DNA from: Bdellovibrionales bacterium
GTDB lineage: Bacteria; Bdellovibrionota; Bdellovibrionia; Bdellovibrionales; JAGQZY01
Assembly (NCBI GenBank): GCA_964230645.1
Contig: CAXRHT010000001.1
Coordinates: 954,219 to 1,018,218 of the forward strand
Reading direction: 5' to 3'
DNA: 64,000 nt
Positions 1,423 to 15,055 of the stretch are shown here, one piece after another. Below the pieces are notes generated by a model, which worked only from the letters and a program-made list of their open reading frames with translations, was not told the origin of the DNA and did no database searches. Position numbers and translations under genes: made by a program. Every line of letters begins with the position of its first letter. Position 1 is the first letter of the stretch.

Positions 1423-4400
1423 TCAATCAACAGTTGCGGGCTTTTCTTCGAAATTCGCTACTTTCTCATCGGGCTCCATTTGGTCGATAAAAAGAGAGTA
1501 AAGGGAAGGTAAAATCACTAAAGTTAAAAGAGAGGAGGAGATCATCCCCCCAACCACCACAGTCGCCAGAGGCTTTTGCACCTCGGCTCCTAGGCCAGAG
1601 GAAAACATCATTGGTAGAAAACCGAAGATGTCGGTGAAGGCTGTCATTAAAACGGGACGCAGCCGCGCTTTAACACCTTGCTTAGCGATCTCGTCAGAAC
1701 TTTTACCTTTCTTATAGAGGCGATTGAAATAGCTGATCAATACAACTCCATTTAAAATACTGATCCCACTAAGGGCTATAAAACCAACTCCAGCCGAAAT
1801 ACTAAAGGGCATTCCTTGGAGGAGGAGCGCCAGTACTCCTCCAACCAGTGCTAACGGAGCACAGGCAAAAATTAAAACCACCTGGTAGAAATTCTTGAAG
1901 GCGCCATAGAGCATGCAAATAATTAGGAGAAGAGATAAGGGAACAAGGACAGAGAGTCTTTCTTTAGCTTTGATTAAATTTTTAAAACTTCCGCCCCACT
2001 CTATGAAATAGCCTGCAGGAAGATCGAGCTCTTCTTTTACTTTTTTCCTAGCTTGTTGCACGAATCCTTCAATATCTCGGGTGCTAGGGTTTATAAGGAC
2101 AGCCATTCTTCTTTGAGAGTTTTCCCTGCTAATGTCAGAGAAGGTTTTTGTAAATTCGATCTCCGCAAGATCTTTTATGGGAAGGGTAAACCCTTCAGAG
2201 ATACCCACGGGAAGGTTCTTAACAAGATCAATATTTTTACGCTCCTCAGAGGAGAGTCTTGTGACGATGGGATACTGCCGAACTCCGTCGTATATTACTC
2301 CCATCTTGCGTCCACCAATGGCTGTCTCAATAGCATCTAAAACGGGGCGCTCGGTGACACCAAGCTTGGCCAGTGTATTTTTCTTTGGAGTGTATTGTAA
2401 CATGGGCGCAAAGCCTTGGGATTGTGATTCGGCTCCAGCAACTCCTGGAACCTCTCGCAGAATGTCAGCCAATTTTTCTGAAAGTGATATGAGCTGATCC
2501 ATATCCTCCCCATAGATTTTCGCCGACACTTCAGCGCGGGTTCCCTCTAATAGCTCATTGAAGCGAAGCTCCACAGGTTGGGAGACCAGGAGAGCTTGCG
2601 CTGGCACGAGCTTTTCAAGTTTTGCCTTCACCTTTTTTATCAGTTGAGACTTTGTTTTTATTTTTGAATCTTCGGGCCAATCAGACTTTGGATGAAGCAT
2701 CACAAAGGTATCAGCGATATTTATACTCATGGGGTCGGTGGTGACTTCAGAAGCGCCGATTTTTGAAAAAACTTTTTTAACTTGGGGAAACTCACCAATA
2801 ACCTGATCGGATAATTTCTGTAAGGCCACAGCATTCTCAGCACTGACATTGGCCGGACGTATCATCTGTAAGGAAAAGTCACCCTCATCAAGTTGCGGAA
2901 TAAACTCAGCCCCAAGAAAATTGAAGGTCGTAATTCCTGAGGTAATTAATAATAGGGTCACAGCGAGCACAAGCTTTTTAAAGCGTAAAGCTAGATTGAG
3001 AACTGGGTCAATGAGCCGTTGAGCAATCCTAAAGACAAAAGGAGTTTTCTCTTTGGGGTCTCCACTTAGGAACGTGGCTGCAAGAGCTGGTACTAAAGTG
3101 AAGGAAAGCGAAAGGGCTGAGCCTAGAGCCATTACGAAGGTCATAGCCATGGGGCCGAACATTCGGCCCTCGATCCCCGTTAAGGCAAAAAGAGGAATAA
3201 AGGTGACTATAACAATAAGCTCCCCAAAACCAGCAGCCTGGCGAATCTCCGAGGTGGCTTTCGTTACTATGTTTTTAACCTCTTCGCGAGAGAGCTTACG
3301 CCCCAAAATCTCCTTTTCCTCTCGAATGCGCCTGACACAGTTTTCAATCACAATCACCGCGCCATCGATAATAATTCCAAAATCAAGGGCACCAAGGCTC
3401 ATCAGGTTTCCGGAGACTTTATAGATTTTCATAAGTGAAAAGGTAATTAATAAAGAGAGAGGAATGGTTAAGGCTGTAATAAGAGCGGCCCTTAGGTTTC
3501 CCACCATCATCAATAAAACCAATACAACCAGAAGAGCACCCAAAACCAGATTATGTTCCACGGTTGAAAGGGTGGCATTTACCATTTTTGAGCGATCATA
3601 TAAAATCTCTAGACGCACGCCTTGGGGCAGGTCTTCCTTAATTTCAAGTAGTTTTTCTTTAACTGCAATAGCCACTGTTCGGCTGTTTTCTCCAAGAAGC
3701 ATAAAGGCCGTTCCGATCACGGCCTCTTTTCCCGAGACAGTAGCGGCACCGGTGCGGATCTGCTTATCGAGCTCTACTTTGGCGATATCCTTGATCCTAA
3801 TGACTTCAAAAGTAGGCAGCCTTTTAACTATTACATTTGAGATATCCTCTTTGGTTTGCAGAAGACCCACACCACGAATTAGAACTTGCTCTCCAGTCTG
3901 TTGGACAAATCCTCCACCCACATTTTTATTAGATTGTGAAAGAGCTTTTTGAATATCATCGAAATGAAGTCCGTATCGCGCCATTTTTTTAATGTTGGGC
4001 TGAATGTAGTATTGCTTTTCAAAACCTCCGATGGTGTTCACTTCTGTGACACCCTTCACATTCAGTAGACGAGGCTTAATGACCCATTCTTGTAGACTGC
4101 GAAGCTCCATGAGCTGCTCTAATCTCTTTTGCTCTCCTTTTGCCTTATTCTCGTATTCAATAGAGTAATGAAAAATCTCTCCAAGCCCTGTGCTTATGGG
4201 CCCCATTTTCGGCGTGAGCCCCTTAGGGAGAGAAACATTTTGGATCTTTTCGCCAATTAACTGCCTGGCTTGATAGATGTCGTAGTCTTCCTCAAAAATC
4301 ACCGTGACCTGAGAGATGCCATACTTCGAAACAGATCGAATATTTGTCACCCCAGGTATACCGTTCATTGAATATTCAATGGGAAAGGTCACCATCCGTT

Positions 4401-4581
4401 CTACCTCTTCGGGAACAAGTCCAGGTACTGAGGTGTTGATTTGCACCTGTGTATTTGTGATATCAGGAACGGCATCAATGGGAAGGGTTAAAAAAGATTT
4501 CCCTCCCACTACCGTCATGGCTAAAAAGAAAACAAAAACGAAAATTCTATTTTTAACTGAAAATTCAACAATTTTATTCAT
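1423..4581 (-). CDS. czcA: CzcA/CusA family heavy-metal efflux RND transporter
   Basis: 1052 aa; LPIDAVPDITNTQVQI, GPISTGLGEI, TM4 GALDFGIIIDGAVIVIEN (CzcA/CnrA divalent type), RLRPVLMTA, GAEVQKPLATVVVGG. Confidence 0.93.
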   Translation of the reverse strand: MNKIVEFSVKNRIFVFVFFLAMTVVGGKSFLTLPIDAVPDITNTQVQINTSVPGLVPEEVERMVTFPIEYSMNGIPGVTNIRSVSKYGISQVTVIFEEDYDIYQARQLIGEKIQNVSLPKGLTPKMGPISTGLGEIFHYSIEYENKAKGEQKRLEQLMELRSLQEWVIKPRLLNVKGVTEVNTIGGFEKQYYIQPNIKKMARYGLHFDDIQKALSQSNKNVGGGFVQQTGEQVLIRGVGLLQTKEDISNVIVKRLPTFEVIRIKDIAKVELDKQIRTGAATVSGKEAVIGTAFMLLGENSRTVAIAVKEKLLEIKEDLPQGVRLEILYDRSKMVNATLSTVEHNLVLGALLVVLVLLMMVGNLRAALITALTIPLSLLITFSLMKIYKVSGNLMSLGALDFGIIIDGAVIVIENCVRRIREEKEILGRKLSREEVKNIVTKATSEIRQAAGFGELIVIVTFIPLFALTGIEGRMFGPMAMTFVMALGSALSLSFTLVPALAATFLSGDPKEKTPFVFRIAQRLIDPVLNLALRFKKLVLAVTLLLITSGITTFNFLGAEFIPQLDEGDFSLQMIRPANVSAENAVALQKLSDQVIGEFPQVKKVFSKIGASEVTTDPMSINIADTFVMLHPKSDWPEDSKIKTKSQLIKKVKAKLEKLVPAQALLVSQPVELRFNELLEGTRAEVSAKIYGEDMDQLISLSEKLADILREVPGVAGAESQSQGFAPMLQYTPKKNTLAKLGVTERPVLDAIETAIGGRKMGVIYDGVRQYPIVTRLSSEERKNIDLVKNLPVGISEGFTLPIKDLAEIEFTKTFSDISRENSQRRMAVLINPSTRDIEGFVQQARKKVKEELDLPAGYFIEWGGSFKNLIKAKERLSVLVPLSLLLIICMLYGAFKNFYQVVLIFACAPLALVGGVLALLLQGMPFSISAGVGFIALSGISILNGVVLISYFNRLYKKGKSSDEIAKQGVKARLRPVLMTAFTDIFGFLPMMFSSGLGAEVQKPLATVVVGGMISSSLLTLVILPSLYSLFIDQMEPDEKVANFEEKPATVD

Positions 4582-4592
4582 AACTAAAATTC

Positions 4593-4976
4593 CTAATGGG
4601 AGTGTCCGTATTCTGATTTGTCGGTTGAGAATATATCGCTGATTGCAATAAGCTCTTTGCCTTGAGTAACTATTGCATCACCTAAGCTGGGCTTTTTATC
4701 CATTTCGCGGAATTTAAAATAACCATCCTTTAATTGGTAATAGCCCTTTTTTTCTTTGACATAAACTATGGCTGTGGAGGGGATTTTAAAATCATCACTA
4801 TCCACTTTTTGAGTTTTTATATTCAGAAGCTTTTCGGACTCTTTAGAGAGTTTAAAGCCCTTTTTATCATCGACATCAACAATGGCTTTATGAGGACCGA
4901 AACGATGGGATTTGCCATGATGGTCTCCGTGGTCGCCACTCGCAAAAAGAAATAGGCTTAATAATAATACCATCAT
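4593..4976 (-). CDS. Very short CzcB-like periplasmic adaptor (His-rich)
   Basis: Between TolC and czcA; signal-like N-terminus, HGDHHGKSH, IPSTAIV...GDAIVTQG resembling an MFP C-terminal membrane-proximal segment. Confidence 0.6.
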   Translation of the reverse strand: MMVLLLSLFLFASGDHGDHHGKSHRFGPHKAIVDVDDKKGFKLSKESEKLLNIKTQKVDSDDFKIPSTAIVYVKEKKGYYQLKDGYFKFREMDKKPSLGDAIVTQGKELIAISDIFSTDKSEYGHSH

Positions 4977-6235
4977 GGAGCCTCCTGGATACCTAGGACA
5001 TCGTATAGTCGTCCTGTGAATTGACTTAATTTTAGAAAAGACTTTTGAGCTAGAATCTCATGACGATCACGGTCCTCCATCAAGGAGAGAAGCTGATCAT
5101 GGCCATCGATCATCGAAGGAATTGAAATCAGTCCCCTTAAAAATAGCCGCTCAATGCGGTGATGCTTTTCAAGAAGATCCTTTTTGTTTGGAATCATACG
5201 AAGAGTATCAAAGGTGGTTTTATAGGTGGCCAATAAATTTTCAACCACCACCTCATTCTCTTCTTTTTTAAAGCTAAGTTGAGTCTTCAGAAGTCGATAC
5301 TCATTGCTCGCGCGCTGCCGCCCTCCACGGTTCCAGTTAATAATAGGTAGATCTACCTTTAACGACAGGCCAAAGCGGTCAACTCTTCGCCCCAGTTCTT
5401 CTTCAATTTGAAAAGAGGGTCCAATTTTAAGGTCCGGATAAACTCTCGACTTTTCAAACGAAATCTTTTGCTCTGTCCACCGGGTCTCGTACTGCATTTC
5501 TCTATAATCACTGCTAATGGCCTGTGAGTGTTCCACGTTTTGTGGTGCCACTAAGGGCTTGGATTCAAGGTCCATATCGATTTTGCAGTTACTCTTTGCA
5601 TAAAAACCAATAAGATTATCAAGTTTTGTTTTTTCGATGATTAAATCTGAAATTTTCAGTCGGTGTTTGCTGACCTCCATATCCACAATATCCAATTGAA
5701 TTTTCTGCTCTGGAGAGAGCTGACGATTTCGTTTTAGGGAATTTCGCATCTTGATAAATACTTGCAGTGATTCTTGATACAAAGAGATCAAAGTCGAAAC
5801 CTGCTTTAAGCGAGAGATCATTAAGCTGGACTGAATTAAAACCTCATCTGCCCTATTTTTACTTTTTAGTTTCCCAAGCTCACCTTTAGCACTGGCAAGA
5901 TCGACTCTGGAGGACTGCTTGCCTCCGAGTTCAAAAACATAAAGCAAGTTCCCCATGGTTTCAGAGTTCGAACTCGACCCATGGTTGCTAGTAAAGTTAA
6001 GTATAGGATTAGGAGCCTGGCTCGCTTCATCCACGCTCGAATCAAAAACCTGGGCTTGAGAGCTAAGAGTGGCAAGCTCAGGATGGTTCATACTAATTTT
6101 CTCTAATATTTGTTGATCGGACTGGAGCACACAATTGGCCCTAGCCTGCATCGGAATAAAAAATAATAAAATTAAAGTGGCTCCCCAGTTCAATCTGAAA
6201 AGTTGAACAGAGAAAAGCCTCATTAAGGTTTCCAC
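4973..6235 (-). CDS. TolC/CzcC family outer membrane efflux protein
   Basis: 420 aa; APNPILN, ELGGKQSSRV, YPDLKIG, DLPIINWNRG motifs; GGAGG RBS; operon with czcA. Confidence 0.88.
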   Translation of the reverse strand: METLMRLFSVQLFRLNWGATLILLFFIPMQARANCVLQSDQQILEKISMNHPELATLSSQAQVFDSSVDEASQAPNPILNFTSNHGSSSNSETMGNLLYVFELGGKQSSRVDLASAKGELGKLKSKNRADEVLIQSSLMISRLKQVSTLISLYQESLQVFIKMRNSLKRNRQLSPEQKIQLDIVDMEVSKHRLKISDLIIEKTKLDNLIGFYAKSNCKIDMDLESKPLVAPQNVEHSQAISSDYREMQYETRWTEQKISFEKSRVYPDLKIGPSFQIEEELGRRVDRFGLSLKVDLPIINWNRGGRQRASNEYRLLKTQLSFKKEENEVVVENLLATYKTTFDTLRMIPNKKDLLEKHHRIERLFLRGLISIPSMIDGHDQLLSLMEDRDRHEILAQKSFLKLSQFTGRLYDVLGIQEAP

Positions 6236-6363
6236 CTTATGCCTCCAAAGTTTTTATTTACAAACGCCTTTAACGATAGTTAGGCGTACTTAGGAGGGCG
6301 GAGATTGGAGTCTAGACTAGGCTGTTGATAGAAATTAACGATTTCAAACAAGGATTGTGTTTT

Positions 6364-6621
6364 CTACTCCATTATGAACAGAATGGCCGCAGTTGGATTT
6401 AAATACCTCGAATGAGTATGGCAACAGTGGCAATCCTGACAATCTTCTTCAGGACAGGGCTTGTTGTCACCACTGGAGCAATGGTCGATGCCAGAATTAT
6501 CACAATCCTGTGCCATTTCCACTGATTCCGAGTGCCCTGAGTCCTCGATGGGACCGGCTCCATCAAGAGCAAAACTCGAAAAGAAACTGACTAAAATAAG
6601 GACTGTGATCCATAACTTCAT
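6364..6621 (-). CDS. Secreted Cys/His-rich CzcI-like leader protein (frame continues past TAG to an RPP motif, stop at 6280)
   Basis: Signal peptide MKLWITVLILVSFFSSFA, CPEEDCQDCHCCHTH; first gene of czc operon. Confidence 0.7.
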   Translation of the reverse strand: MKLWITVLILVSFFSSFALDGAGPIEDSGHSESVEMAQDCDNSGIDHCSSGDNKPCPEEDCQDCHCCHTHSRYLNPTAAILFIME

Positions 6622-6690
6622 TGCTATAGAGCATACTCTACATGTTGATCTCACGTCAATTCTCGCCCTTTTATGTCTCTTTTTGAAAGG

Positions 6691-7155
6691 TTAACAGAAA
6701 ATCTTTTCTGAGACCTTCTCAATAAGCTTTTCTAGAAAGATTTTATGCTCTTCATTGAAAAAGCTCTTTGTCGGCGCGTCGAGATCTAACACTCCAAACC
6801 TTTTATTCCCTTTCTTTAAGGGGATTACAAGCTCAGATTCTGATTCTGGGTCACAAGCGATATGATCAGCAAATTTGTGTACATCTTCGACCAGCAGGGC
6901 CTCTCCTGTTTCAAAAGATTTTCCACAAACTCCTCTCCCTTCTTTAATTCTAAGACAAGCCGGTTTTCCCTGAAAAGGTCCAAGCACAAGCTCTCCATCG
7001 GCCTCGTTCCATAGGTAGAATCCCACCCAATTCACTCCAGGAATGCCATGGAAAATCACAGAGGAGAGATTTGCTAGGTTGGCTATAAGATTGCTTTCAC
7101 CCTCAATAATGCCAAGAGCGGAGGATTCTAAATCGGACTGTTGAGATGGACTCAT
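6691..7155 (-). CDS. msrC: GAF-domain free methionine-R-sulfoxide reductase
   Basis: NWVGFY, LGPFQGKPAC, GRGVCG, HIACD..SESELVIP, GVLDLD motifs. Confidence 0.88.
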   Translation of the reverse strand: MSPSQQSDLESSALGIIEGESNLIANLANLSSVIFHGIPGVNWVGFYLWNEADGELVLGPFQGKPACLRIKEGRGVCGKSFETGEALLVEDVHKFADHIACDPESESELVIPLKKGNKRFGVLDLDAPTKSFFNEEHKIFLEKLIEKVSEKIFC

Positions 7156-7223
7156 TGATTGCTTCCTTTCACGTAAAGAAAGGGTCTAACCTTTTTTCTT
7201 TTAGAATGCAAAATGAGTCTATT

Positions 7224-7580
7224 TCAAAGAACGGGCTTGAAGAAAATCTGATGATCTTTGTTCTCTTCTTTTAAACGTTTAATCAACAAACTCCGGTTTA
7301 TAAAAAAAACTTCAGATCCAGCCTCAATGAAGACATCCGTATGAACAGGCTTTTCATTAAGTAGCTCTTTAAGAGCTATAAGCGTGGGACTCTCGATGAC
7401 CACCTTTGCCTGTTCTTTTTTAGGGAGTCTAACGCTCCCTCTAATCACCAGAACAGCAAGATTTGGAATTTGATTTTCGTAAACCAAATTCACTTCCTTT
7501 TTCAGACTGAGCTTTTCGAAACTCTGACTCAACCAGTAAAAGATTCTATTTTCGGTGTCGAGTTGATGGATTCCACACAT
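7224..7580 (-). CDS. Small cNMP-binding (Crp effector)-like domain protein without HTH
   Basis: LVYENQIP..AVLVIRGSVRL pattern like the Crp beta-barrel; follows Crp/Fnr gene; has its own FNR-like box. Confidence 0.55.
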   Translation of the reverse strand: MCGIHQLDTENRIFYWLSQSFEKLSLKKEVNLVYENQIPNLAVLVIRGSVRLPKKEQAKVVIESPTLIALKELLNEKPVHTDVFIEAGSEVFFINRSLLIKRLKEENKDHQIFFKPVL

Positions 7581-7614
7581 AAAAATAGGTTAGCTCTTCT
7601 GATAAATTAATAAT

Positions 7615-7628
7615 CTGATAGATATCAG
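7615..7628 (-). promoter_or_regulatory. FNR-type operator CTGAT-N4-ATCAG
   Basis: CTGATAGATATCAG; centre 41.5 bp upstream of ATG 7580, which has TAACCT 6 nt before it. Confidence 0.7.
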
Positions 7629-7646
7629 GAAATTGATTTTTATTGG

Positions 7647-8363
7647 TTAAAAACCTAAAGAGGCCTCTTTTTCGATCGCCTCGATATCTTTTAAGATAAG
7701 GTACTTTTTATCCTGAACCAAATAACCGGACTCTTTAAAATCTGTGATCAGTCGAATGATATTTTCAGAAGCCGCACCAACCATTTGTGCCATTTCTTCT
7801 CTAGTCAGCTTAATATCCAGTAAAACGCCGTCGTCTTGTTGAACGCCGAAGTTTTCTTTTAATAAAAGAAGAGTTTCTGCAAATCGCTCTCGTACGTTCT
7901 TTCTAGCCATACTGGCTAAGCGCTCTTCAGCCGCTCCCATTTCTTTGCTCAACCGACTAATAATTTCTGAGGCCAACTGAGGCTCCATTTTAATGAGAGA
8001 CTGGATGGTATCTTTAGAGACAAAACAAATCGTTCCCTCTTCGATGACTGTGGCCGAGGCTGTGTAGGGAGAGTTGGAAAAAAGACTACGGTGTCCAACT
8101 ACGTCTCCTTTGTGAACAATCCGCACAATCGTTTCATCACCTTCGGAGTTGGTCTTTGAAATCTTGACCTTTCCGCTATGAAGACAATAAAGGCCAAAGG
8201 GAGGATTTCCCTCAAGAAAAAGGTTTTGTCCTTTTTTATAAACATTAGCATTTTTGGATTGGTCGAGTTCCTGAAGCGCCTTATCCTCAAGATGACAAAA
8301 AATACTTTTGGGTCTTCCCGGGCAATTATCACAACTTAATACTGTTTTCTTTTTTAGGCTCAT
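7647..8363 (-). CDS. Crp/Fnr family regulator, FNR-like (N-terminal Cys cluster)
   Basis: CDNC...C N-terminus plus internal Cys (TICF), cNMP fold, HTH LTREEMAQMVGAASENIIR; adjacent to cco genes. Confidence 0.9.
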   Translation of the reverse strand: MSLKKKTVLSCDNCPGRPKSIFCHLEDKALQELDQSKNANVYKKGQNLFLEGNPPFGLYCLHSGKVKISKTNSEGDETIVRIVHKGDVVGHRSLFSNSPYTASATVIEEGTICFVSKDTIQSLIKMEPQLASEIISRLSKEMGAAEERLASMARKNVRERFAETLLLLKENFGVQQDDGVLLDIKLTREEMAQMVGAASENIIRLITDFKESGYLVQDKKYLILKDIEAIEKEASLGF

Positions 8364-8417
8364 TTCAGCTCGTATTCTAATTCATTCTCAATTTCTTCTC
8401 AAGTAGAGCTGAAATAA

Positions 8418-9830
8418 TCACGGCGCAAGAAGGATGAGCTGTCCTTTAAACTCCTCTGGGCCCTCCCCCTCATAAGATATTTCATAAGGAAGAAGCAATC
8501 GACCCTCTGGAACTTTACTGCGAGGAAAGCTTAAAAAAACATGGACCCAAACCGCTTGGCCAGGACTAATACTTTGGGCCATCGTCGGAGAGACCACTTG
8601 GATGTCTGCTTCGTCCACCTTTATTTCCCTGATTATTAACACCTGGTTGGTTTGGTTGGTCAAATGCACTCGAAAGTGGTTCACTATTTGGGTCTTTTCT
8701 TGGTTGGCAAACTGATAGGGGGATTCAATCGCCCGAACGACTTCAACTTCTAAGGACTCTCGTTGCGTTAGGCCTAATACAGCTCCTAGGAATAACGCCA
8801 GCAGAATCAACAGGTAAGAGATATTTCTAAAGGTAAAATAGTTCTTTTTACTTCCTTGAATTTCTGCCTCAGAGGCATAACGAATAAGCCCTTGGGGCTT
8901 GTTCACTTTGAGCATGATCTCATCGCAAGCATCCGCGCAAGCCGTACAGGCGATGCACTCCATCTGGAGGCCCTCCCTAATGTCAATTCCCGTTGGGCAG
9001 ACGTTTACGCATCGAAGACAGTTGATACAGTCCCCCTGGCTTTCTTTTGGTAGGCCTTTTTGCCGCCTTGGCTCCCCTCTTTTATGGTCGTAAAGGATGG
9101 CCATCGAATTGTCATCCATAAGGGCTGACTGGAGTCGACCATAAGGACAGGCAATTAAGCAGAATTGCTCTCTAAACCAACCAAAGTTGAGAAGTAAAAC
9201 AGCGGTAACCACCTGCACCGCCACAAAGAGTGACCAATTTTCGGAAGGAGCGTTTAAGGTAATGTTTAAGAGTTGCTTCGATCCAACGAAATAGGCAAAT
9301 GCCGAGTGAGTGATATGGGAGCTAGCGAGAAAAAAGAGAACCCACTTGATCGCCTTCCAGAAAAGAATTCTCGGTGTCCAATCCACTTTTTCAAGACGTC
9401 TTCTTTGAATGGCTTTACCTTCCGTCCACTCTTCTATGCGACGATAGATGAAATCGATAAACACAGTTTGAGGACAAGCCCATCCACACCAAACTCTCCC
9501 CCATACAGCCGTCATAAAAATAATGGAAAAGGCGGCGATAGCGAGGAGAAAAAAGACTAGAGGAGCGTCATGGGCGAAAAAAAGATTATCGAAAAACAGA
9601 AAGCGTCTTCTTGAAATATCTAAGAAGATGGTTTGCCGTCCATTAAACGTGGTCCATGGTACCACTAAAAATAAAATGATTAAAAAACCATAAACGAGAT
9701 TACGACGCTTTCGAAAGTACCCCGAAACCTCGGCTGGAATTATAAATAATCGGCGACCTGTTTGATCCAAACTGGGAGGCCGATCAGGAGCCACAAGAAA
9801 TTTTTCGTAGTCCTCTTTATTATTGCTCAT
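8418..9830 (-). CDS. ccoG: cbb3 oxidase accessory protein CcoG (FixG)
   Basis: GRVWCGWACPQTV, FREQFCLIACPYGRLQ, CINCLRCVNVCPTGIDIR, CIACTACADAC. Confidence 0.95.
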   Translation of the reverse strand: MSNNKEDYEKFLVAPDRPPSLDQTGRRLFIIPAEVSGYFRKRRNLVYGFLIILFLVVPWTTFNGRQTIFLDISRRRFLFFDNLFFAHDAPLVFFLLAIAAFSIIFMTAVWGRVWCGWACPQTVFIDFIYRRIEEWTEGKAIQRRRLEKVDWTPRILFWKAIKWVLFFLASSHITHSAFAYFVGSKQLLNITLNAPSENWSLFVAVQVVTAVLLLNFGWFREQFCLIACPYGRLQSALMDDNSMAILYDHKRGEPRRQKGLPKESQGDCINCLRCVNVCPTGIDIREGLQMECIACTACADACDEIMLKVNKPQGLIRYASEAEIQGSKKNYFTFRNISYLLILLALFLGAVLGLTQRESLEVEVVRAIESPYQFANQEKTQIVNHFRVHLTNQTNQVLIIREIKVDEADIQVVSPTMAQSISPGQAVWVHVFLSFPRSKVPEGRLLLPYEISYEGEGPEEFKGQLILLAP

Positions 9831-10414
9831 TCCACTTTTTCACCTTGAGGGGCTTTGGCTCCCGCAGGATTAGTCCCCTGAAGACTTTTTACGTAGGCAG
9901 CAATCAAAGGTTTTTTGTCGTTGGGAATTAAAGTTTCCCAGCCCGGCATCCCCTTAGTGGGAAAACCTTTATTGATGGCTGTCATAATGCTTTCAAACTC
10001 ACCTTTTGAGTGAATCCAAAACTTGTCCGTAAGGTTTGGTCCGATCAAACCCTGGCCTTTATCGCCATGGCAAGAAGCACAGAATTGAGCAAAGTTTTTC
10101 TGCCCTTCTTGTAGCATCTCAGGGCTATTTAAAATCGTCTCAAGACTAAGATCTTTCACAGCTGCAGCCGCAGTTTTCGCCTGAGTCGCTCTTTGATGTT
10201 TGATCCGAGCCATCTTTAACTCCAAAGCCTCGTCCGAGGAAAGCCCGCCTCCTCCCAACTCGTAGTGAATAAAATAAAGGAAGGCAAAGATCATAGTGAA
10301 AAAGAAAGTCCATAGCCACCAGTTTGGTAGAGGATTATCCAATTCCTTGATGCCATCGTACTCGTGACCTTCTACAAGTTTTTCATTTAATATCTCATCT
10401 TTTTTATCGCTCAT
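9827..10414 (-). CDS. ccoP: cbb3 oxidase subunit III, monoheme
   Basis: HEYDGIKELDNPLPNWW, single CASCH, GPNLTDKFW, KGMPGW; start taken at ATG 10414. Confidence 0.92.
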   Translation of the reverse strand: MSDKKDEILNEKLVEGHEYDGIKELDNPLPNWWLWTFFFTMIFAFLYFIHYELGGGGLSSDEALELKMARIKHQRATQAKTAAAAVKDLSLETILNSPEMLQEGQKNFAQFCASCHGDKGQGLIGPNLTDKFWIHSKGEFESIMTAINKGFPTKGMPGWETLIPNDKKPLIAAYVKSLQGTNPAGAKAPQGEKVE

Positions 10415-10592
10415 GAGAACCTCGCAATTCATCAGACTCTAAGGGCAGCATTTGTAAGTTTTGGTAAATATGGCGTCGAGACTTTAAGTTCACCCAAATG
10501 AGGACCCCCAAAAAGCAGACGAAGAACAACAAGAAGCCAAAAAGCACCAGGTTCGGATAATCGACAAAGTGAGCTAAAGTTTCTTTTTTCAT
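10404..10592 (-). CDS. ccoQ: cbb3 oxidase subunit IV
   Basis: 62 aa, one TM helix, C-terminal MLPLE, between ccoNO and ccoP. Confidence 0.8.
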   Translation of the reverse strand: MKKETLAHFVDYPNLVLFGFLLFFVCFLGVLIWVNLKSRRHIYQNLQMLPLESDELRGSHER

Positions 10593-12757
10593 TTTGCTAC
10601 CTCTTCTTTAACAGGGGTTGGTTTTTTCTCCTTTTGTCCAAGAGCTTGTAAGTAGGCTATTAGAGCAACGATCTCTCTTTGCTCCAAATGTTTATCTTTC
10701 ACACCTTGTTGCCTAAGATCGTTGGCAATCACCTCGGCCTCAGCTTCGGCAAACCGGTCGGCTTCCGCCACGACGTTATCCTCATAGGGTACTCCGAGCT
10801 TTTTCATCACAGAGAGTTTTCTTCTTAGCCCGTAGAAGTCAGTTTTACCGGTAAGAAGCCACATATAGTTAGGCATAATGGATTGAGATATTACATCTCT
10901 TGGATTGTTCATATGGCGATAGTGCCATAAGTTGGGATATTTCCCTCCCACCCTTGAGAGATCTGGGCCGGTTCTTTTTGATCCCCATTGAAAAGGACGA
11001 TCGTACATGGACTCTTCCACAGTAGAGGCTTTACCAAAGCGTAGAACGTCAAAGGGAAGTTTGCGAATCATCTGAGAGTGACAGGTGTAGCACCCTTCCC
11101 GGATATAAATATCCCGTCCTGCTAGTTCTAGTGGTGTATAAGGAGCTACAATTTTTTGTGGATCAACATAGCTCTTCATTGAAAGAATGGGCATGATCTC
11201 TATGACCGATCCCACCGCAATGGCCATAAAAGAAAGGACACTAAAAGTGAAGGCTAAACCTTCTAGCTTCCTGTGAGAGGTTTCATATTCAGGTCCTTTT
11301 TCCCGTGGCTGTAAAGGTTTACTCACGGGCGTGTCCTTAGCTTTTGCCCCTTCAGCCGTCATCGTTTTATAAAGGTTATAAAGCATAATGAAAGCACCAA
11401 GAATAAAGAGGAAGCCTCCGAAAGCTCTCACCCAATAAAGAGGGACAATACGAGTTACAGTCTCAACAAAATCAGGATAGACAAGGTTTCCTGTTTCGTC
11501 GATTGCCATCCACATAAGACCTTGGGTGATTCCTGCCGCCCACATGGAAATGTAGTAAGTGAGTATTCCTGTAAGACCAATCCAGAAGTGCATATTGGCT
11601 AGTTTATCGGAGTAAAGCTTGGTTCCGAAAAGACGAGGAATGAGATAATAGATCATTCCAAAAGTTAAAAAGCCGTTCCACCCCAAGGCCCCTCCATGGA
11701 CGTGAGCAATAATCCAATCGGTGTAATGACCAAGGGAACTGACCGACTTTATTGATAATAAGGGGCCTTCGAAAGTCGCCATTCCGTAAAAGGTCACGGC
11801 AGTCACGAGGAACTTAATCACTGGGTCTGTTCTTAGGAGGTGCCAAGCTCCTCTTAAAGTTAAAATCCCGTTGATCATCCCGCCCCAGCTTGGAGCCCAG
11901 AGCATCACACTAAAAACCATTCCCAGCGTCTGAGCCCAATCGGGAAGCGCTGTATTTAGCAAGTGATGGGGGCCGGCCCATATATAAATAAATATAAGAG
12001 CCCAAAAATGAATGATTGAAAGACGATAAGAATAAACCGGTCGGTTCGCCGCTTTTGGGATATAGTAATACATCAATCCCAAAAAGGGAGTTGTTAAGAA
12101 AAACGCCACGGCGTTGTGCCCATACCACCACTGAACCAAGGCATCTTGAATTCCGGCGTACACGGGATAACTTTGCAAATATCCTACAGGAATTTCAATA
12201 GAATTAAAGATATGGAGAACCGCCACGGTGATGATGGTCGCGATATAAAACCATATTGCCACGTACATATGTTTTTCGCGACGATTCTTTAAGGTCATGA
12301 AAAAGTTGAGCGCAAATAAAACCCAAATTAGAGCTATAGCGATATCTAGGGGCCACTCGAGCTCAGCATACTCTTTACTCTGTGAAAAACCGAGGGGAAG
12401 CGTAATTGCAGCACCAACAATGATGGCCTGCCATCCCCAGAAGTGAATTTTACTAAGCGTATCGGAGTACATTCGCGTTTTACAAAGACGTTGAGTGGAG
12501 TGATAGATACCTGCAAAAATAGCATTCCCAGCAAACGCAAAAATAGCGGCATTGGTATGTAGGGGACGAAGCCTTCCGAAGGTTAGCCACTCCATATTAA
12601 AGTTAAACTTCCAATAGGCTAGCTGTAAGGCGATCCATATACCCAAGGTAAAGGCCACAATACCCCAGCCTGTCGTTGCGTAAAGGAAATAACGAACGAT
12701 TTTGTCATCGTAGAACTCCTTTACCGAAACATTGTTTGTTTTACTTTTTTCTTCCAT
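10589..12757 (-). CDS. ccoN: Fused cbb3 oxidase subunits I/II (CcoNO)
   Basis: FGRLRPLHTN, QWWYGHNAV, WAGPHHL, HVH; C-terminal CcoO GCYTCHSQMIR, WGSKRTGPDL; GAGGAG RBS before ATG 12757. Confidence 0.96.
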   Translation of the reverse strand: MEEKSKTNNVSVKEFYDDKIVRYFLYATTGWGIVAFTLGIWIALQLAYWKFNFNMEWLTFGRLRPLHTNAAIFAFAGNAIFAGIYHSTQRLCKTRMYSDTLSKIHFWGWQAIIVGAAITLPLGFSQSKEYAELEWPLDIAIALIWVLFALNFFMTLKNRREKHMYVAIWFYIATIITVAVLHIFNSIEIPVGYLQSYPVYAGIQDALVQWWYGHNAVAFFLTTPFLGLMYYYIPKAANRPVYSYRLSIIHFWALIFIYIWAGPHHLLNTALPDWAQTLGMVFSVMLWAPSWGGMINGILTLRGAWHLLRTDPVIKFLVTAVTFYGMATFEGPLLSIKSVSSLGHYTDWIIAHVHGGALGWNGFLTFGMIYYLIPRLFGTKLYSDKLANMHFWIGLTGILTYYISMWAAGITQGLMWMAIDETGNLVYPDFVETVTRIVPLYWVRAFGGFLFILGAFIMLYNLYKTMTAEGAKAKDTPVSKPLQPREKGPEYETSHRKLEGLAFTFSVLSFMAIAVGSVIEIMPILSMKSYVDPQKIVAPYTPLELAGRDIYIREGCYTCHSQMIRKLPFDVLRFGKASTVEESMYDRPFQWGSKRTGPDLSRVGGKYPNLWHYRHMNNPRDVISQSIMPNYMWLLTGKTDFYGLRRKLSVMKKLGVPYEDNVVAEADRFAEAEAEVIANDLRQQGVKDKHLEQREIVALIAYLQALGQKEKKPTPVKEEVAK

Positions 12758-12953
12758 CTTCTGGCTCCTCACGAACTAGCGGTAAAACTTTCTTTTTTTG
12801 AATTTCAGAATCTTCTTCGTCATCAGATAAAGGTGAGTGTTTGGGGGTCTCTAGGTCCTCAAACTGATTGTCTTTTGTTGCCATTACAAACAAAACGATA
12901 AATAAAGTCACAAGAGTCACGGTAACAGGAATGGTGAGAACTAAGATTAACAA
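12741..12953 (-). CDS. ccoS: cbb3 oxidase assembly protein CcoS
   Basis: TM helix then QFEDLETP; between ccoI and ccoN. Confidence 0.85.
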   Translation of the reverse strand: MLILVLTIPVTVTLVTLFIVLFVMATKDNQFEDLETPKHSPLSDDEEDSEIQKKKVLPLVREEPEDGRKK

Positions 12954-15055
12954 CTCTTCTCCCCTTTCTTTTGTATATTTAAATAAGTCAGTAAAACTAC
13001 TGTCAGGGAGCTTAAGGGCATAAGTATGACGGCTACCAAGGGACTGATCAGGCCTAGAAGAGCAAAGACGGCAAAGCTAAGATTATAAAGAAAGGATAAA
13101 AAAAGATTTATCCAAATGGTCTGCACACAAACTCTTGAAAGAGTAAACATTTTAAAAAGTGGTTTGAGACTTTTTTCTAGCAGGTGAATACTAGAAGTTT
13201 TAAAAGTGACTTCCGCAGAAGAGTAGATAGAAACTGATACGTCCGCCTGTCTCATAGCCAGAGCATCATTGACTCCGTCTCCTACGAATAAAACCTTTTC
13301 CCCACGTTTCTGTAAGGCTTTTACGAGCTCTGTCTTTTGCTCAGGAGTTTTATTTGCAACAATCTCATGGTCTTTAAAACCAAGTTGCGCCCCCACCTTA
13401 TAAGCGACCTCGTTACTATCTCCCGTTAGTAAAAATAACTCTTTGTTGCTTTTTCGAAGCTCAGAGAGAACTTTAACGGAGTCTTCTTTAACCTCATCAC
13501 TCAGAATTGCACTCAGCCAGATTTCATTGTTTTTTAAGATCTCAACTTTTTTCTTATTAGAATCAAATCCATTGCGTATTTGATAAAGATCTCCACTGTA
13601 TTCTCCCCTAACTCCCGATCCAGCGATTTCACAAAGATCTTGCATAGGGAGGACGGCAACCTCTCCAATGGCGCGCTTTAAACTGATCGCAACGGGATGT
13701 TCGCTATTCTGCTCAAGGGATGAAATTATTTGTTTTTGCAGTGAACTCGGCTCACCCATAGGCCAACTTTCGATTTTAAATTCCCCCTGGGTCAGCGTTC
13801 CTGTTTTATCAAAAACAACAGTGGTAACTGCCTGTAGATTTTCTAGCGCGTCCACATTTTTAAAAAGAAAACCCTGCTTAAGACCCTTTCTCACACTGAG
13901 GCTATGAGCCAGTGGTGTCGCTATGGCTAGAGCACAAGGACAGGCAATCACGAGGAGAGCTAGTATTCGATCCAATCCATTAGGGATATCGAATATTGCA
14001 AAAAATAGATAAGAAGCCACAGCTATGGCAATAATCGCCAAGGTTAAAAATTGAGCGCCGCGATCGGCCAAAAGTTCCTTCTGACTCTCGACCGATAATC
14101 CTTTGTTGATCTTCTCTAAAAGGGCTGTCACTCGCGAACTCTGAACAGGCTCGAGCACACTTAAATAGGCTTTTGAGGAAATAAGTTTGGAGCCAGCATA
14201 CACCCGCCCCCGACGTTGAATCTGAACGGGAAAGGACTCCCCTGTGATGATCGAATTATCAATTTCAACTCTCTCAGAAAGTATTTCCGAATCCGTGGGA
14301 ATAAATTCATTGCGTCTTAACAAGATTTGATCCCCGAATTGAAGATTTGCAATAGCAGTCTCAACCCACTCGCCCCCTTTTTCCCGGAGGACAGTGTTTT
14401 GGTTAAAAAAGTCACTCAGATCCACGGGGGTTAAATACTTCTCTTGGAGACGAAATATTATGTAACGGGAGGCAAGCAGAAAAAAAACGAACATGGAAAG
14501 AGAGTCGAAGTAAATCTCATTTTTCCCGACAAGAAGGTTTTTTAAGCTTAAGGAGGCCGCACCTACAATCGCTAAACTGAGCGGAATATCAACGGAGACC
14601 CTTTTTTTAAAAAGGGAGTGGACCGAATTTTTTAAAAGGGGCCAGGCGCTATAAAACAGAACCGGAAGAAAAAGAAGGAAGCTCAGCCAATGAAACAAAA
14701 GTCCCAGTTCCGATTGATCAGCGCCCGCGTAATTCGAAGCCGAAAGCAGCATGATATTCCCAGCACAAGCTCCCGCAATAGCCAGTCGAATTAAAGGAGA
14801 ATGGCTCTTTTTTGAGTCCTTCTCTAAGCGACCGAGCAAACGAGCTTGAAAACCTGCCTTTTCAATGTTGGCTAGAAAGTCTTGAGGTCGAAAATGCTTA
14901 TTCGCTCTTGTTGAGACACGAGCCTCACTGAGATCCACCTCAAGACTCTCAACTCCTAAAATCCCATCCCCAATAGACTGGATCTTACGGACGCACTTTA
15001 TACAATGCATGCCCTCTACAGAAAAATGCCAATATTTTGAGGCCTCTATCTCCAC
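12947..15055 (-). CDS. ccoI: P1B-type copper ATPase (CcoI/FixI)
   Basis: HMA GMHCIKC, GNIMLLS, YFDS, TGES, CPC, DKTGT, GDGVND; cco context. Confidence 0.9.
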   Translation of the reverse strand: MEIEASKYWHFSVEGMHCIKCVRKIQSIGDGILGVESLEVDLSEARVSTRANKHFRPQDFLANIEKAGFQARLLGRLEKDSKKSHSPLIRLAIAGACAGNIMLLSASNYAGADQSELGLLFHWLSFLLFLPVLFYSAWPLLKNSVHSLFKKRVSVDIPLSLAIVGAASLSLKNLLVGKNEIYFDSLSMFVFFLLASRYIIFRLQEKYLTPVDLSDFFNQNTVLREKGGEWVETAIANLQFGDQILLRRNEFIPTDSEILSERVEIDNSIITGESFPVQIQRRGRVYAGSKLISSKAYLSVLEPVQSSRVTALLEKINKGLSVESQKELLADRGAQFLTLAIIAIAVASYLFFAIFDIPNGLDRILALLVIACPCALAIATPLAHSLSVRKGLKQGFLFKNVDALENLQAVTTVVFDKTGTLTQGEFKIESWPMGEPSSLQKQIISSLEQNSEHPVAISLKRAIGEVAVLPMQDLCEIAGSGVRGEYSGDLYQIRNGFDSNKKKVEILKNNEIWLSAILSDEVKEDSVKVLSELRKSNKELFLLTGDSNEVAYKVGAQLGFKDHEIVANKTPEQKTELVKALQKRGEKVLFVGDGVNDALAMRQADVSVSIYSSAEVTFKTSSIHLLEKSLKPLFKMFTLSRVCVQTIWINLFLSFLYNLSFAVFALLGLISPLVAVILMPLSSLTVVLLTYLNIQKKGEKSC

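Follow-up and report, generated by a model that had tools for sequence, protein, structure and literature searches.

In CutF, metal-induced stalling at a proline motif melts a stem-loop that covers the next gene's ribosome-binding site, as described in the sections of PMC9973294 and bioRxiv 10.1101/2025.02.05.636593 devoted to the mechanism; the same sections give outer-membrane efflux (OEP) genes of the CzcC/CusC kind as the most frequent downstream neighbours of the CutF-like class. For CruR, arrest at a RAPP motif has been demonstrated in vitro, according to the part of PMC12992588 that deals with it. What happens when such a leader is interrupted? The CruR alleles Y50STOP and Y133STOP lose downstream expression, in the account of them given by PMC9426467, and expression is lost downstream of a CutF without its proline-rich end in the corresponding passage of PMC9973294. 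Natural nonsense alleles of ermBL, on the other hand, raise downstream expression, as the relevant portion of PMC5118997 has it.

The leader considered here lies in a 64,000-nucleotide stretch of DNA from a Bdellovibrionales bacterium (the whole of which is called the window below) and carries an in-frame TAG ahead of its proline tail. Probably, a recent nonsense mutation has broken a CutF-like leader, and its efflux pump is predicted to be uninducible by metal.

The leader gene and the operon behind it

The gene runs along the reverse strand (6621-6280) and translates into 85 amino acids, a TAG at 6364-6366, 27 sense codons and a TAA at 6280-6282, exactly as an earlier note on this DNA had read it. 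The translated portion (6367..6621, 85 aa), delimited by translation and alignment, has a hydrophobic N-terminus and a Cys/His cluster. The N-terminus (6568..6621), Met-Lys followed by a hydrophobic run, resembles a signal peptide when judged by eye and has the same character in homologs. The cluster, a predicted metal site placed by alignment at codons 56-70 (6412..6456), has the pattern CxxCHCCHxH, in which C61, C64, H65, C66, H68 and H70 are invariant in 9 aligned leaders. Past the TAG, which is codon 86, translation and homolog alignment define a 27-codon tail with the ancestral TAA stop (6280..6363, reverse strand), including Arg-Pro-Pro codons at 6292..6300 that form a predicted pause site. 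By chance alone, a TAG is often followed by 27 or more open codons: 27.9% of the 458 long TAG-ended frames of the genome have such a run. An ending of Arg, Lys, Glu or Gln followed by Pro-Pro is rare, being found in 6 of 1126 post-stop extensions of at least 10 aa genome-wide, and since the tail is also homologous to intact leaders, we take it to be the old end of the leader gene. Two Pfam matches to the leader, Meg and Conotoxin, fall below cut-off, reflect the signal peptide and the cysteines, and were dismissed.

A sigma-70-like promoter with 9 of 12 consensus matches (6630..6659, reverse strand) ends 8 nt before the leader ATG. It is weak alone, the scan having found 2 such sites against 1.2 expected in shuffles, and it is placed alike in relatives. 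Transcribed from this promoter, the leader mRNA would be nearly leaderless. The start itself has a -10-like box 8 nt before the ATG and no Shine-Dalgarno sequence, and looks like that of a leaderless transcript. Of 95 family leaders, 46 have such a box 4-10 nt before a candidate start, compared with 9.7% of control positions inside genes; the excess is overstated, since those positions lie in coding DNA, which is poorer in AT. No intrinsic terminator was found in 6150-6800. An Rfam scan gave no element near threshold by the leader; its one sub-threshold match, to a eukaryotic snoRNA, was dismissed. The untranslated tail (6280-6363, reverse strand) is rich in C and poor in G (25 C and 9 G in 84 nt), a composition linked to the Rho site in cruR in the relevant part of PMC9426467. 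The stop could expose this C-rich tail to Rho-dependent termination.

A CzcCBA-type operon begins 44 nt after the leader TAA, on the same strand. Its first gene encodes a czcC-like outer-membrane efflux protein of the OEP family (4973..6235, 420 aa), whose GTG start at 6235 is backed by P0009 aligning from residue 1. The Shine-Dalgarno sequence of czcC, GGAGG at 6242..6246, is predicted to pair with the proline codons of the leader. The czcB position is occupied by a short His-rich gene (4593..4976, 127 aa) with no adaptor family over the cut-off; the usual periplasmic adaptor has about 400 aa, and the product is too small for one. Its His-rich part is the N-terminus, and a similarly short gene is present in the ortholog locus of genome G007 (L005, 2464-2913). 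The operon continues with a heavy-metal RND pump of the CusA/CzcA family (1423..4581, 1052 aa, TIGR00914 at 1183 bits against a cut-off of 701). All three genes are still open frames, which fits a recent break as well as continued use.

Elsewhere in the genome there is a paralogous operon (contig C2:20168-26509, locus L018) in which an unbroken leader precedes czcC, a gene in the czcB position and czcA; what we take to be a cation-diffusion-like gene follows. Its CzcA is 54% identical to that of the broken-leader operon. The same Shine-Dalgarno pairing recurs there, with a predicted opening cost that falls from 9.9 to 0.3, and such an intact paralog would make loss of the broken leader cheap. 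Upstream of the leader, the window carries a reverse-strand cluster (6691-15055) that we assume to encode a cbb3-type oxidase, its first gene being a fusion, together with a heavy-metal P-type ATPase; a GAF-domain gene and two cyclic-nucleotide-binding/Crp genes lie in the same interval. On the forward strand of contig C3, one frame stays open for 9637 codons before its TAG. A search of viral contigs gave no match.

Leaders at related czcC loci

How do relatives of this leader compare? CzcC was searched in 26 genomes of the family and 301 of the order (105 with a match), and the upstream regions of the 126 czcC-like loci fetched were read. A profile made from 73 leaders picked as intact, and circular for those, was used to scan the upstream frames with stops as X. 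It scored at least 15 bits at 99 of the 126 loci (72 of the 73, 26 leaders with variant tails and the broken-leader locus), so that leaders stand at most czcC-like loci examined in the order Bdellovibrionales; the locus counts include kin and near-duplicates and are not independent. No Pfam family was found for the three leaders tested. An internal stop occurs in 1 of the 99, at the broken-leader locus, and in none of the 98 others: the TAG is not conserved, which answers the check that the earlier note had proposed. At 23 of the 27 uncounted loci, no leader was detected within 900 nt; the other four are L014, with an intact His-rich leader under the threshold, L086 and L094, cut by contig ends, and L124, with a run of N. 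At L017, L117 and L123 the gene directly upstream of czcC is presumably an ArsR-like repressor, in place of a Pro-Pro leader, which suggests two alternative modes of control. At L047 (G072 C9:45758-46987), one TAG was flagged inside the czcC match of another genome.

Other searches extend the comparison. When a three-leader alignment was searched across the class, 20 of 390 genomes gave a match, a set that overlaps the 126 loci, with a stop only in G000, the genome of the broken leader (1 of 20). Among metagenome loci, 5 of the 19 returned had a czcC match, and the leader is open in all 5. A metagenome scan with the CzcC alignment gave no match, and one with the 91%-identical CzcA P0004 missed the contig of P0004 itself; near relatives may be absent from what it returned. 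Among proteins, 8 relatives were found, every one with a Pro-Pro tail, and 62 of 63 profile hits carry Pro-Pro within their final 15 residues, P0058 being the exception. Protein libraries show fewer broken leaders than there are, in that this leader's truncated products of 85 aa and 96 aa are absent from the protein collection. A single-sequence homolog search with the read-through leader gave 4 candidates, none significant. A Pro-Pro tail is thus kept in these homologs as it is in the 98 other leaders. In the 73 intact leaders the commonest C-terminal tails are FRPP (28), RRPP (19), KEPP (7) and KRPP (7), with no RAPP.

The nearest full-length relative, P0024 (113 aa), aligns without gaps at 62% identity and has Gln at position 86; the codon at the same place in the G007 ortholog is GAA (Glu). 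The simplest origin of the TAG would be a single C-to-T change from CAG (Gln), a proposal drawn from a single protein sequence. Identity to P0024 is 54 of 85 residues before the stop and 16 of 27 after it, the tail being as conserved as the rest of the leader, which is expected of a recent break and also fits ongoing selection. The relative of highest identity, P0058 (75% over 53 aa), is 55 aa long and ends before the site, so that the stop cannot be dated closely. The contigs that carry P0058 do not exceed 3121 nt, and it may be a fragment at the end of a contig or represent a second break, in a sister lineage. When the whole genome was scanned for further nonsense alleles, the 152 in-frame ORF pairs obtained were indistinguishable from ordinary neighbouring genes.

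A predicted switch and the readings of its stop

From the leader tail to the czcC start, the mRNA is predicted to fold at -31.3 kcal/mol (z -3.09), with 1 of 200 shuffles as good. The predicted fold pairs CCTCC in the proline codons (6293-6297), the anti-Shine-Dalgarno strand, with GGAGG at 6242-6246. The predicted cost of opening the Shine-Dalgarno sequence is 9.27 kcal/mol with no ribosome and 9.17 with a ribosome at the TAG, and falls to 2.69 with a ribosome at Pro-Pro and 3.27 at the TAA; 4 of 200 shuffles are as closed as the native site. Pairing was scored at 90 of the 99 loci (9 were dropped, with no usable start site, stop or spacer), and the Shine-Dalgarno sequence pairs with the Arg-Pro-Pro window in 23-24 of these 90, against 2-6 of 90 for neighbouring windows. 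Such pairing is found in 14 of the 20 loci that combine a short spacer with a strong site. The G007 fold does not stand out from shuffles (z -0.88), and there a stalled ribosome cuts the opening cost only from 7.3 to 5.0. Folding thus predicts a switch that hides the Shine-Dalgarno sequence in a subset of leaders only, not family-wide, with G007 as a weak case. A CCT enrichment at the first proline (55 of 90 against 28% of czcC proline codons, counted over kin that are not independent) was given no weight, the genome's Pro-Pro pairs being already CCT-first in 627 of 1378.

How would the switch have worked, and what would the stop do to it? In the intact form, to judge from the homologs, a 113-aa exported peptide would be made from the first gene. 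Metal on the Cys/His cluster would, by analogy with CutF, make the ribosome linger at the Pro-Pro codons, and because these codons are the strand predicted to pair with the czcC Shine-Dalgarno sequence, the lingering ribosome would set that sequence free. In the broken form the TAG comes 22 codons before the Arg-Pro-Pro tail, and the ribosome would leave there, at codon 86, with some 65 nt still to go before the hairpin. It would do so 18 codons past the last Cys. The exit tunnel of the ribosome is 30-40 residues long, and the cluster would still sit inside it. As the ribosome leaves both short of the hairpin and so soon after the last Cys, there would be neither sensing nor opening, except through basal amber leak. 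The prediction is that the czcC Shine-Dalgarno sequence stays hidden in the TAG allele and that the pump is poorly inducible by metal. The earlier proposal of a metal-sensing arrest leader finds support at the level of sequence (the Pro-Pro tail of the homologs, a CutF-like layout when read through and the predicted hiding of the Shine-Dalgarno sequence), and from these we infer metal sensing, stalling and the effect on the pump. The direction of that effect is not certain, given that ermBL nonsense alleles raise expression.

Is the TAG in the living gene at all? An error of sequencing or assembly over a sense codon, the second of three readings offered in the earlier note, would agree with the open leaders of all relatives, and the evidence on the codon consists of contigs from one study. 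Yet 4 of 4 DNA runs compared carry the TAG in their contigs, with 0 differing letters (two span 5900-7000 unbroken, and two bridge the codon in pieces of 572 and 662 nt); the comparison takes in 4 of 5 listed runs, among which there is no RNA run, 3 of the 4 possibly being the source, and contigs only, in which rare alleles are invisible. The four runs were assembled separately, at depths of 27, 18, 7 and 7, one is not marked as a possible source, and the change is a substitution rather than a homopolymer indel. A consensus error at the TAG is very unlikely, fixation in the population being beyond the reach of contigs, and to the error reading as a whole we give next to no credence. A global recoding of TAG, thought unlikely from the outset, is rejected: TAG ends 370 of the genome's 1638 frames over 300 codons and resembles TAA genome-wide (median open run of 12 against 13 codons), RF1 is intact, PylS has no match in the genome, and a CUA anticodon is absent among 33 tRNAs, in a genome 99.6% complete with a visibly incomplete tRNA set (no tRNA-Ile is listed). 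A PylB-like match of 73 bits falls below its cut-off of 348.

The amber codon might also be a selected valve, at which read-through dependent on stress or metal sets the share of ribosomes that reach the Arg-Pro-Pro stall site and hence the gain of the pump. The undecayed tail and the agreement of all four assemblies on the TAG would suit this, and a leak could restore a working peptide; E. coli puts Tyr, Gln or Lys at TAG, to an extent that varies with context and stress, in the part of PMC11126739 that treats this. The same source ranks TAG leak below that of TGA and links leak to a downstream G, whereas here an A follows. No stop was found in the 98 other leaders or, in the overlapping set, the 19 other class matches, P0024 has a sense codon, the genome combines an intact RF1 with neither PylS nor a CUA tRNA, and no Rfam element came near threshold. 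Programmed read-through, the third reading, thus finds no support, and we regard the valve as highly improbable; if true, it would place a stop-codon valve inside an arrest peptide, as a second layer of control on pump induction. Less improbable, but still unlikely, is a reading with the same nonsense origin and the opposite outcome, in which the pump is expressed independently of metal: re-initiation at a TTG, or a stabilised mRNA, would let ribosomes cross Pro-Pro with neither a signal peptide nor a metal site. The frame offers a TTG 12 nt past the TAG (6349-6351, reverse strand), the hairpin is predicted to open for any ribosome that stands at Pro-Pro or at the TAA, the pump genes remain open, and basal expression is high in the nonsense alleles of ermBL (PMC5118997, as above). 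TTG, however, is a weak start, its Shine-Dalgarno pairing is only -2.2 kcal/mol with poor spacing, and in CruR and CutF, as described in their respective papers, mutants with a nonsense codon or a deleted tail switch the downstream gene off. The first of the three readings, a nonsense mutation, is therefore favoured, with a stop in 1 of 99 leaders and Gln in P0024.

Comparison with known leader systems

A literature search covering few subscription papers returned nothing on read-through within a metal arrest leader and nothing on such leaders in Bdellovibrionales. The supplement text of PMC9973294 names neither Bdellovibrio nor Bacteriovorax; the full protein list lies outside that text and may include such members.

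Among more distant likenesses, the CopL family (NF033807) matches residues 38-110 of the read-through form weakly (15.8 bits, E 0.017), far under its 40-bit cut-off, and does not match two intact homologs. CzcI of Cupriavidus metallidurans, likewise small and at the head of czcCBA, is placed among CutF-like proteins, yet without a C-terminal proline motif, in the passage of PMC9973294 that mentions it; the likeness drawn here is one of description. The natural ermBL nonsense alleles offer the same lesion, a stop that ends a regulatory leader of natural strains early, upstream of its stall site, according to the corresponding part of PMC5118997. Unlike the present leader, ermBL senses an antibiotic and controls a 23S-methyltransferase, and its nonsense alleles raise expression.

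CruR (Bp2923 of Bordetella pertussis, a DUF2946 protein), to which the earlier note had compared the leader, is likewise the first gene of a metal operon, and the nonsense codons engineered into it mimic the TAG allele, as far as the pertinent text of PMC9426467 describes them. C61xxC64 lies 42-43 residues before the Pro-Pro tail and the CxxC of CruR 45 (the family spread, by a looser measure, is 41-50). The tail, on the other hand, is LRPP, with Arg one place closer (RRPP in the nearest relatives), and not RAPP, and the DUF2946 Pfam profile gave no match at E<=1 to the read-through form or to two intact homologs. The spacer is 44 nt here against 162 nt in CruR, where Rho-dependent termination operates, and the target is an exporter, while in CruR copper switches an importer off (PMC9426467, in the same text). 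The likeness to CruR is accordingly a loose one; in layout, with its short spacer, hidden ribosome-binding site and detoxifying downstream genes, the locus stands closer to CutF.

Like CutF of Rhodobacter capsulatus, the leader in its read-through form is a small, putatively exported Cys/His protein with a C-terminal Pro-Pro, a short spacer and a predicted stem-loop over the next Shine-Dalgarno sequence. The rule for the CutF-like class (PMC9973294) asks for fewer than 150 aa, and the leader has 85 aa as encoded and 113 aa when read through. An N-terminal signal peptide also belongs to the rule, and here the Met-Lys start and hydrophobic run, found in homologs as well, may be one. It asks for a same-strand metal-related gene within 1000 nt, and czcC lies 44 nt after the TAA; a stem-loop hiding the downstream Shine-Dalgarno sequence is present by prediction. 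Pro-Pro within the last 15 residues is found in the read-through frame (P109-P110 of 113) and is missing from the 85-aa product; unlike the class, the TAG allele stops before its tail, and its natural product fails the rule. There are differences of detail from CutF, the cysteine cluster being CxxCHCCHxH against CxxxC and the anti-Shine-Dalgarno strand lying inside the proline codons, whereas the stem-loop of CutF is described as intergenic in the portion of PMC9973294 concerned. By sequence and by analogy, the leader is probably a broken allele of the CutF-like class rather than a working member, and its intact form would work like CutF. The pair formed by the TAG and a sense codon suits testing if it is through stalling that the unannotated leaders of Bdellovibrionales control CzcCBA pumps. 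On the reading preferred here, the TAG allele is a natural loss-of-function allele that mimics the engineered nonsense mutants of CruR and CutF.
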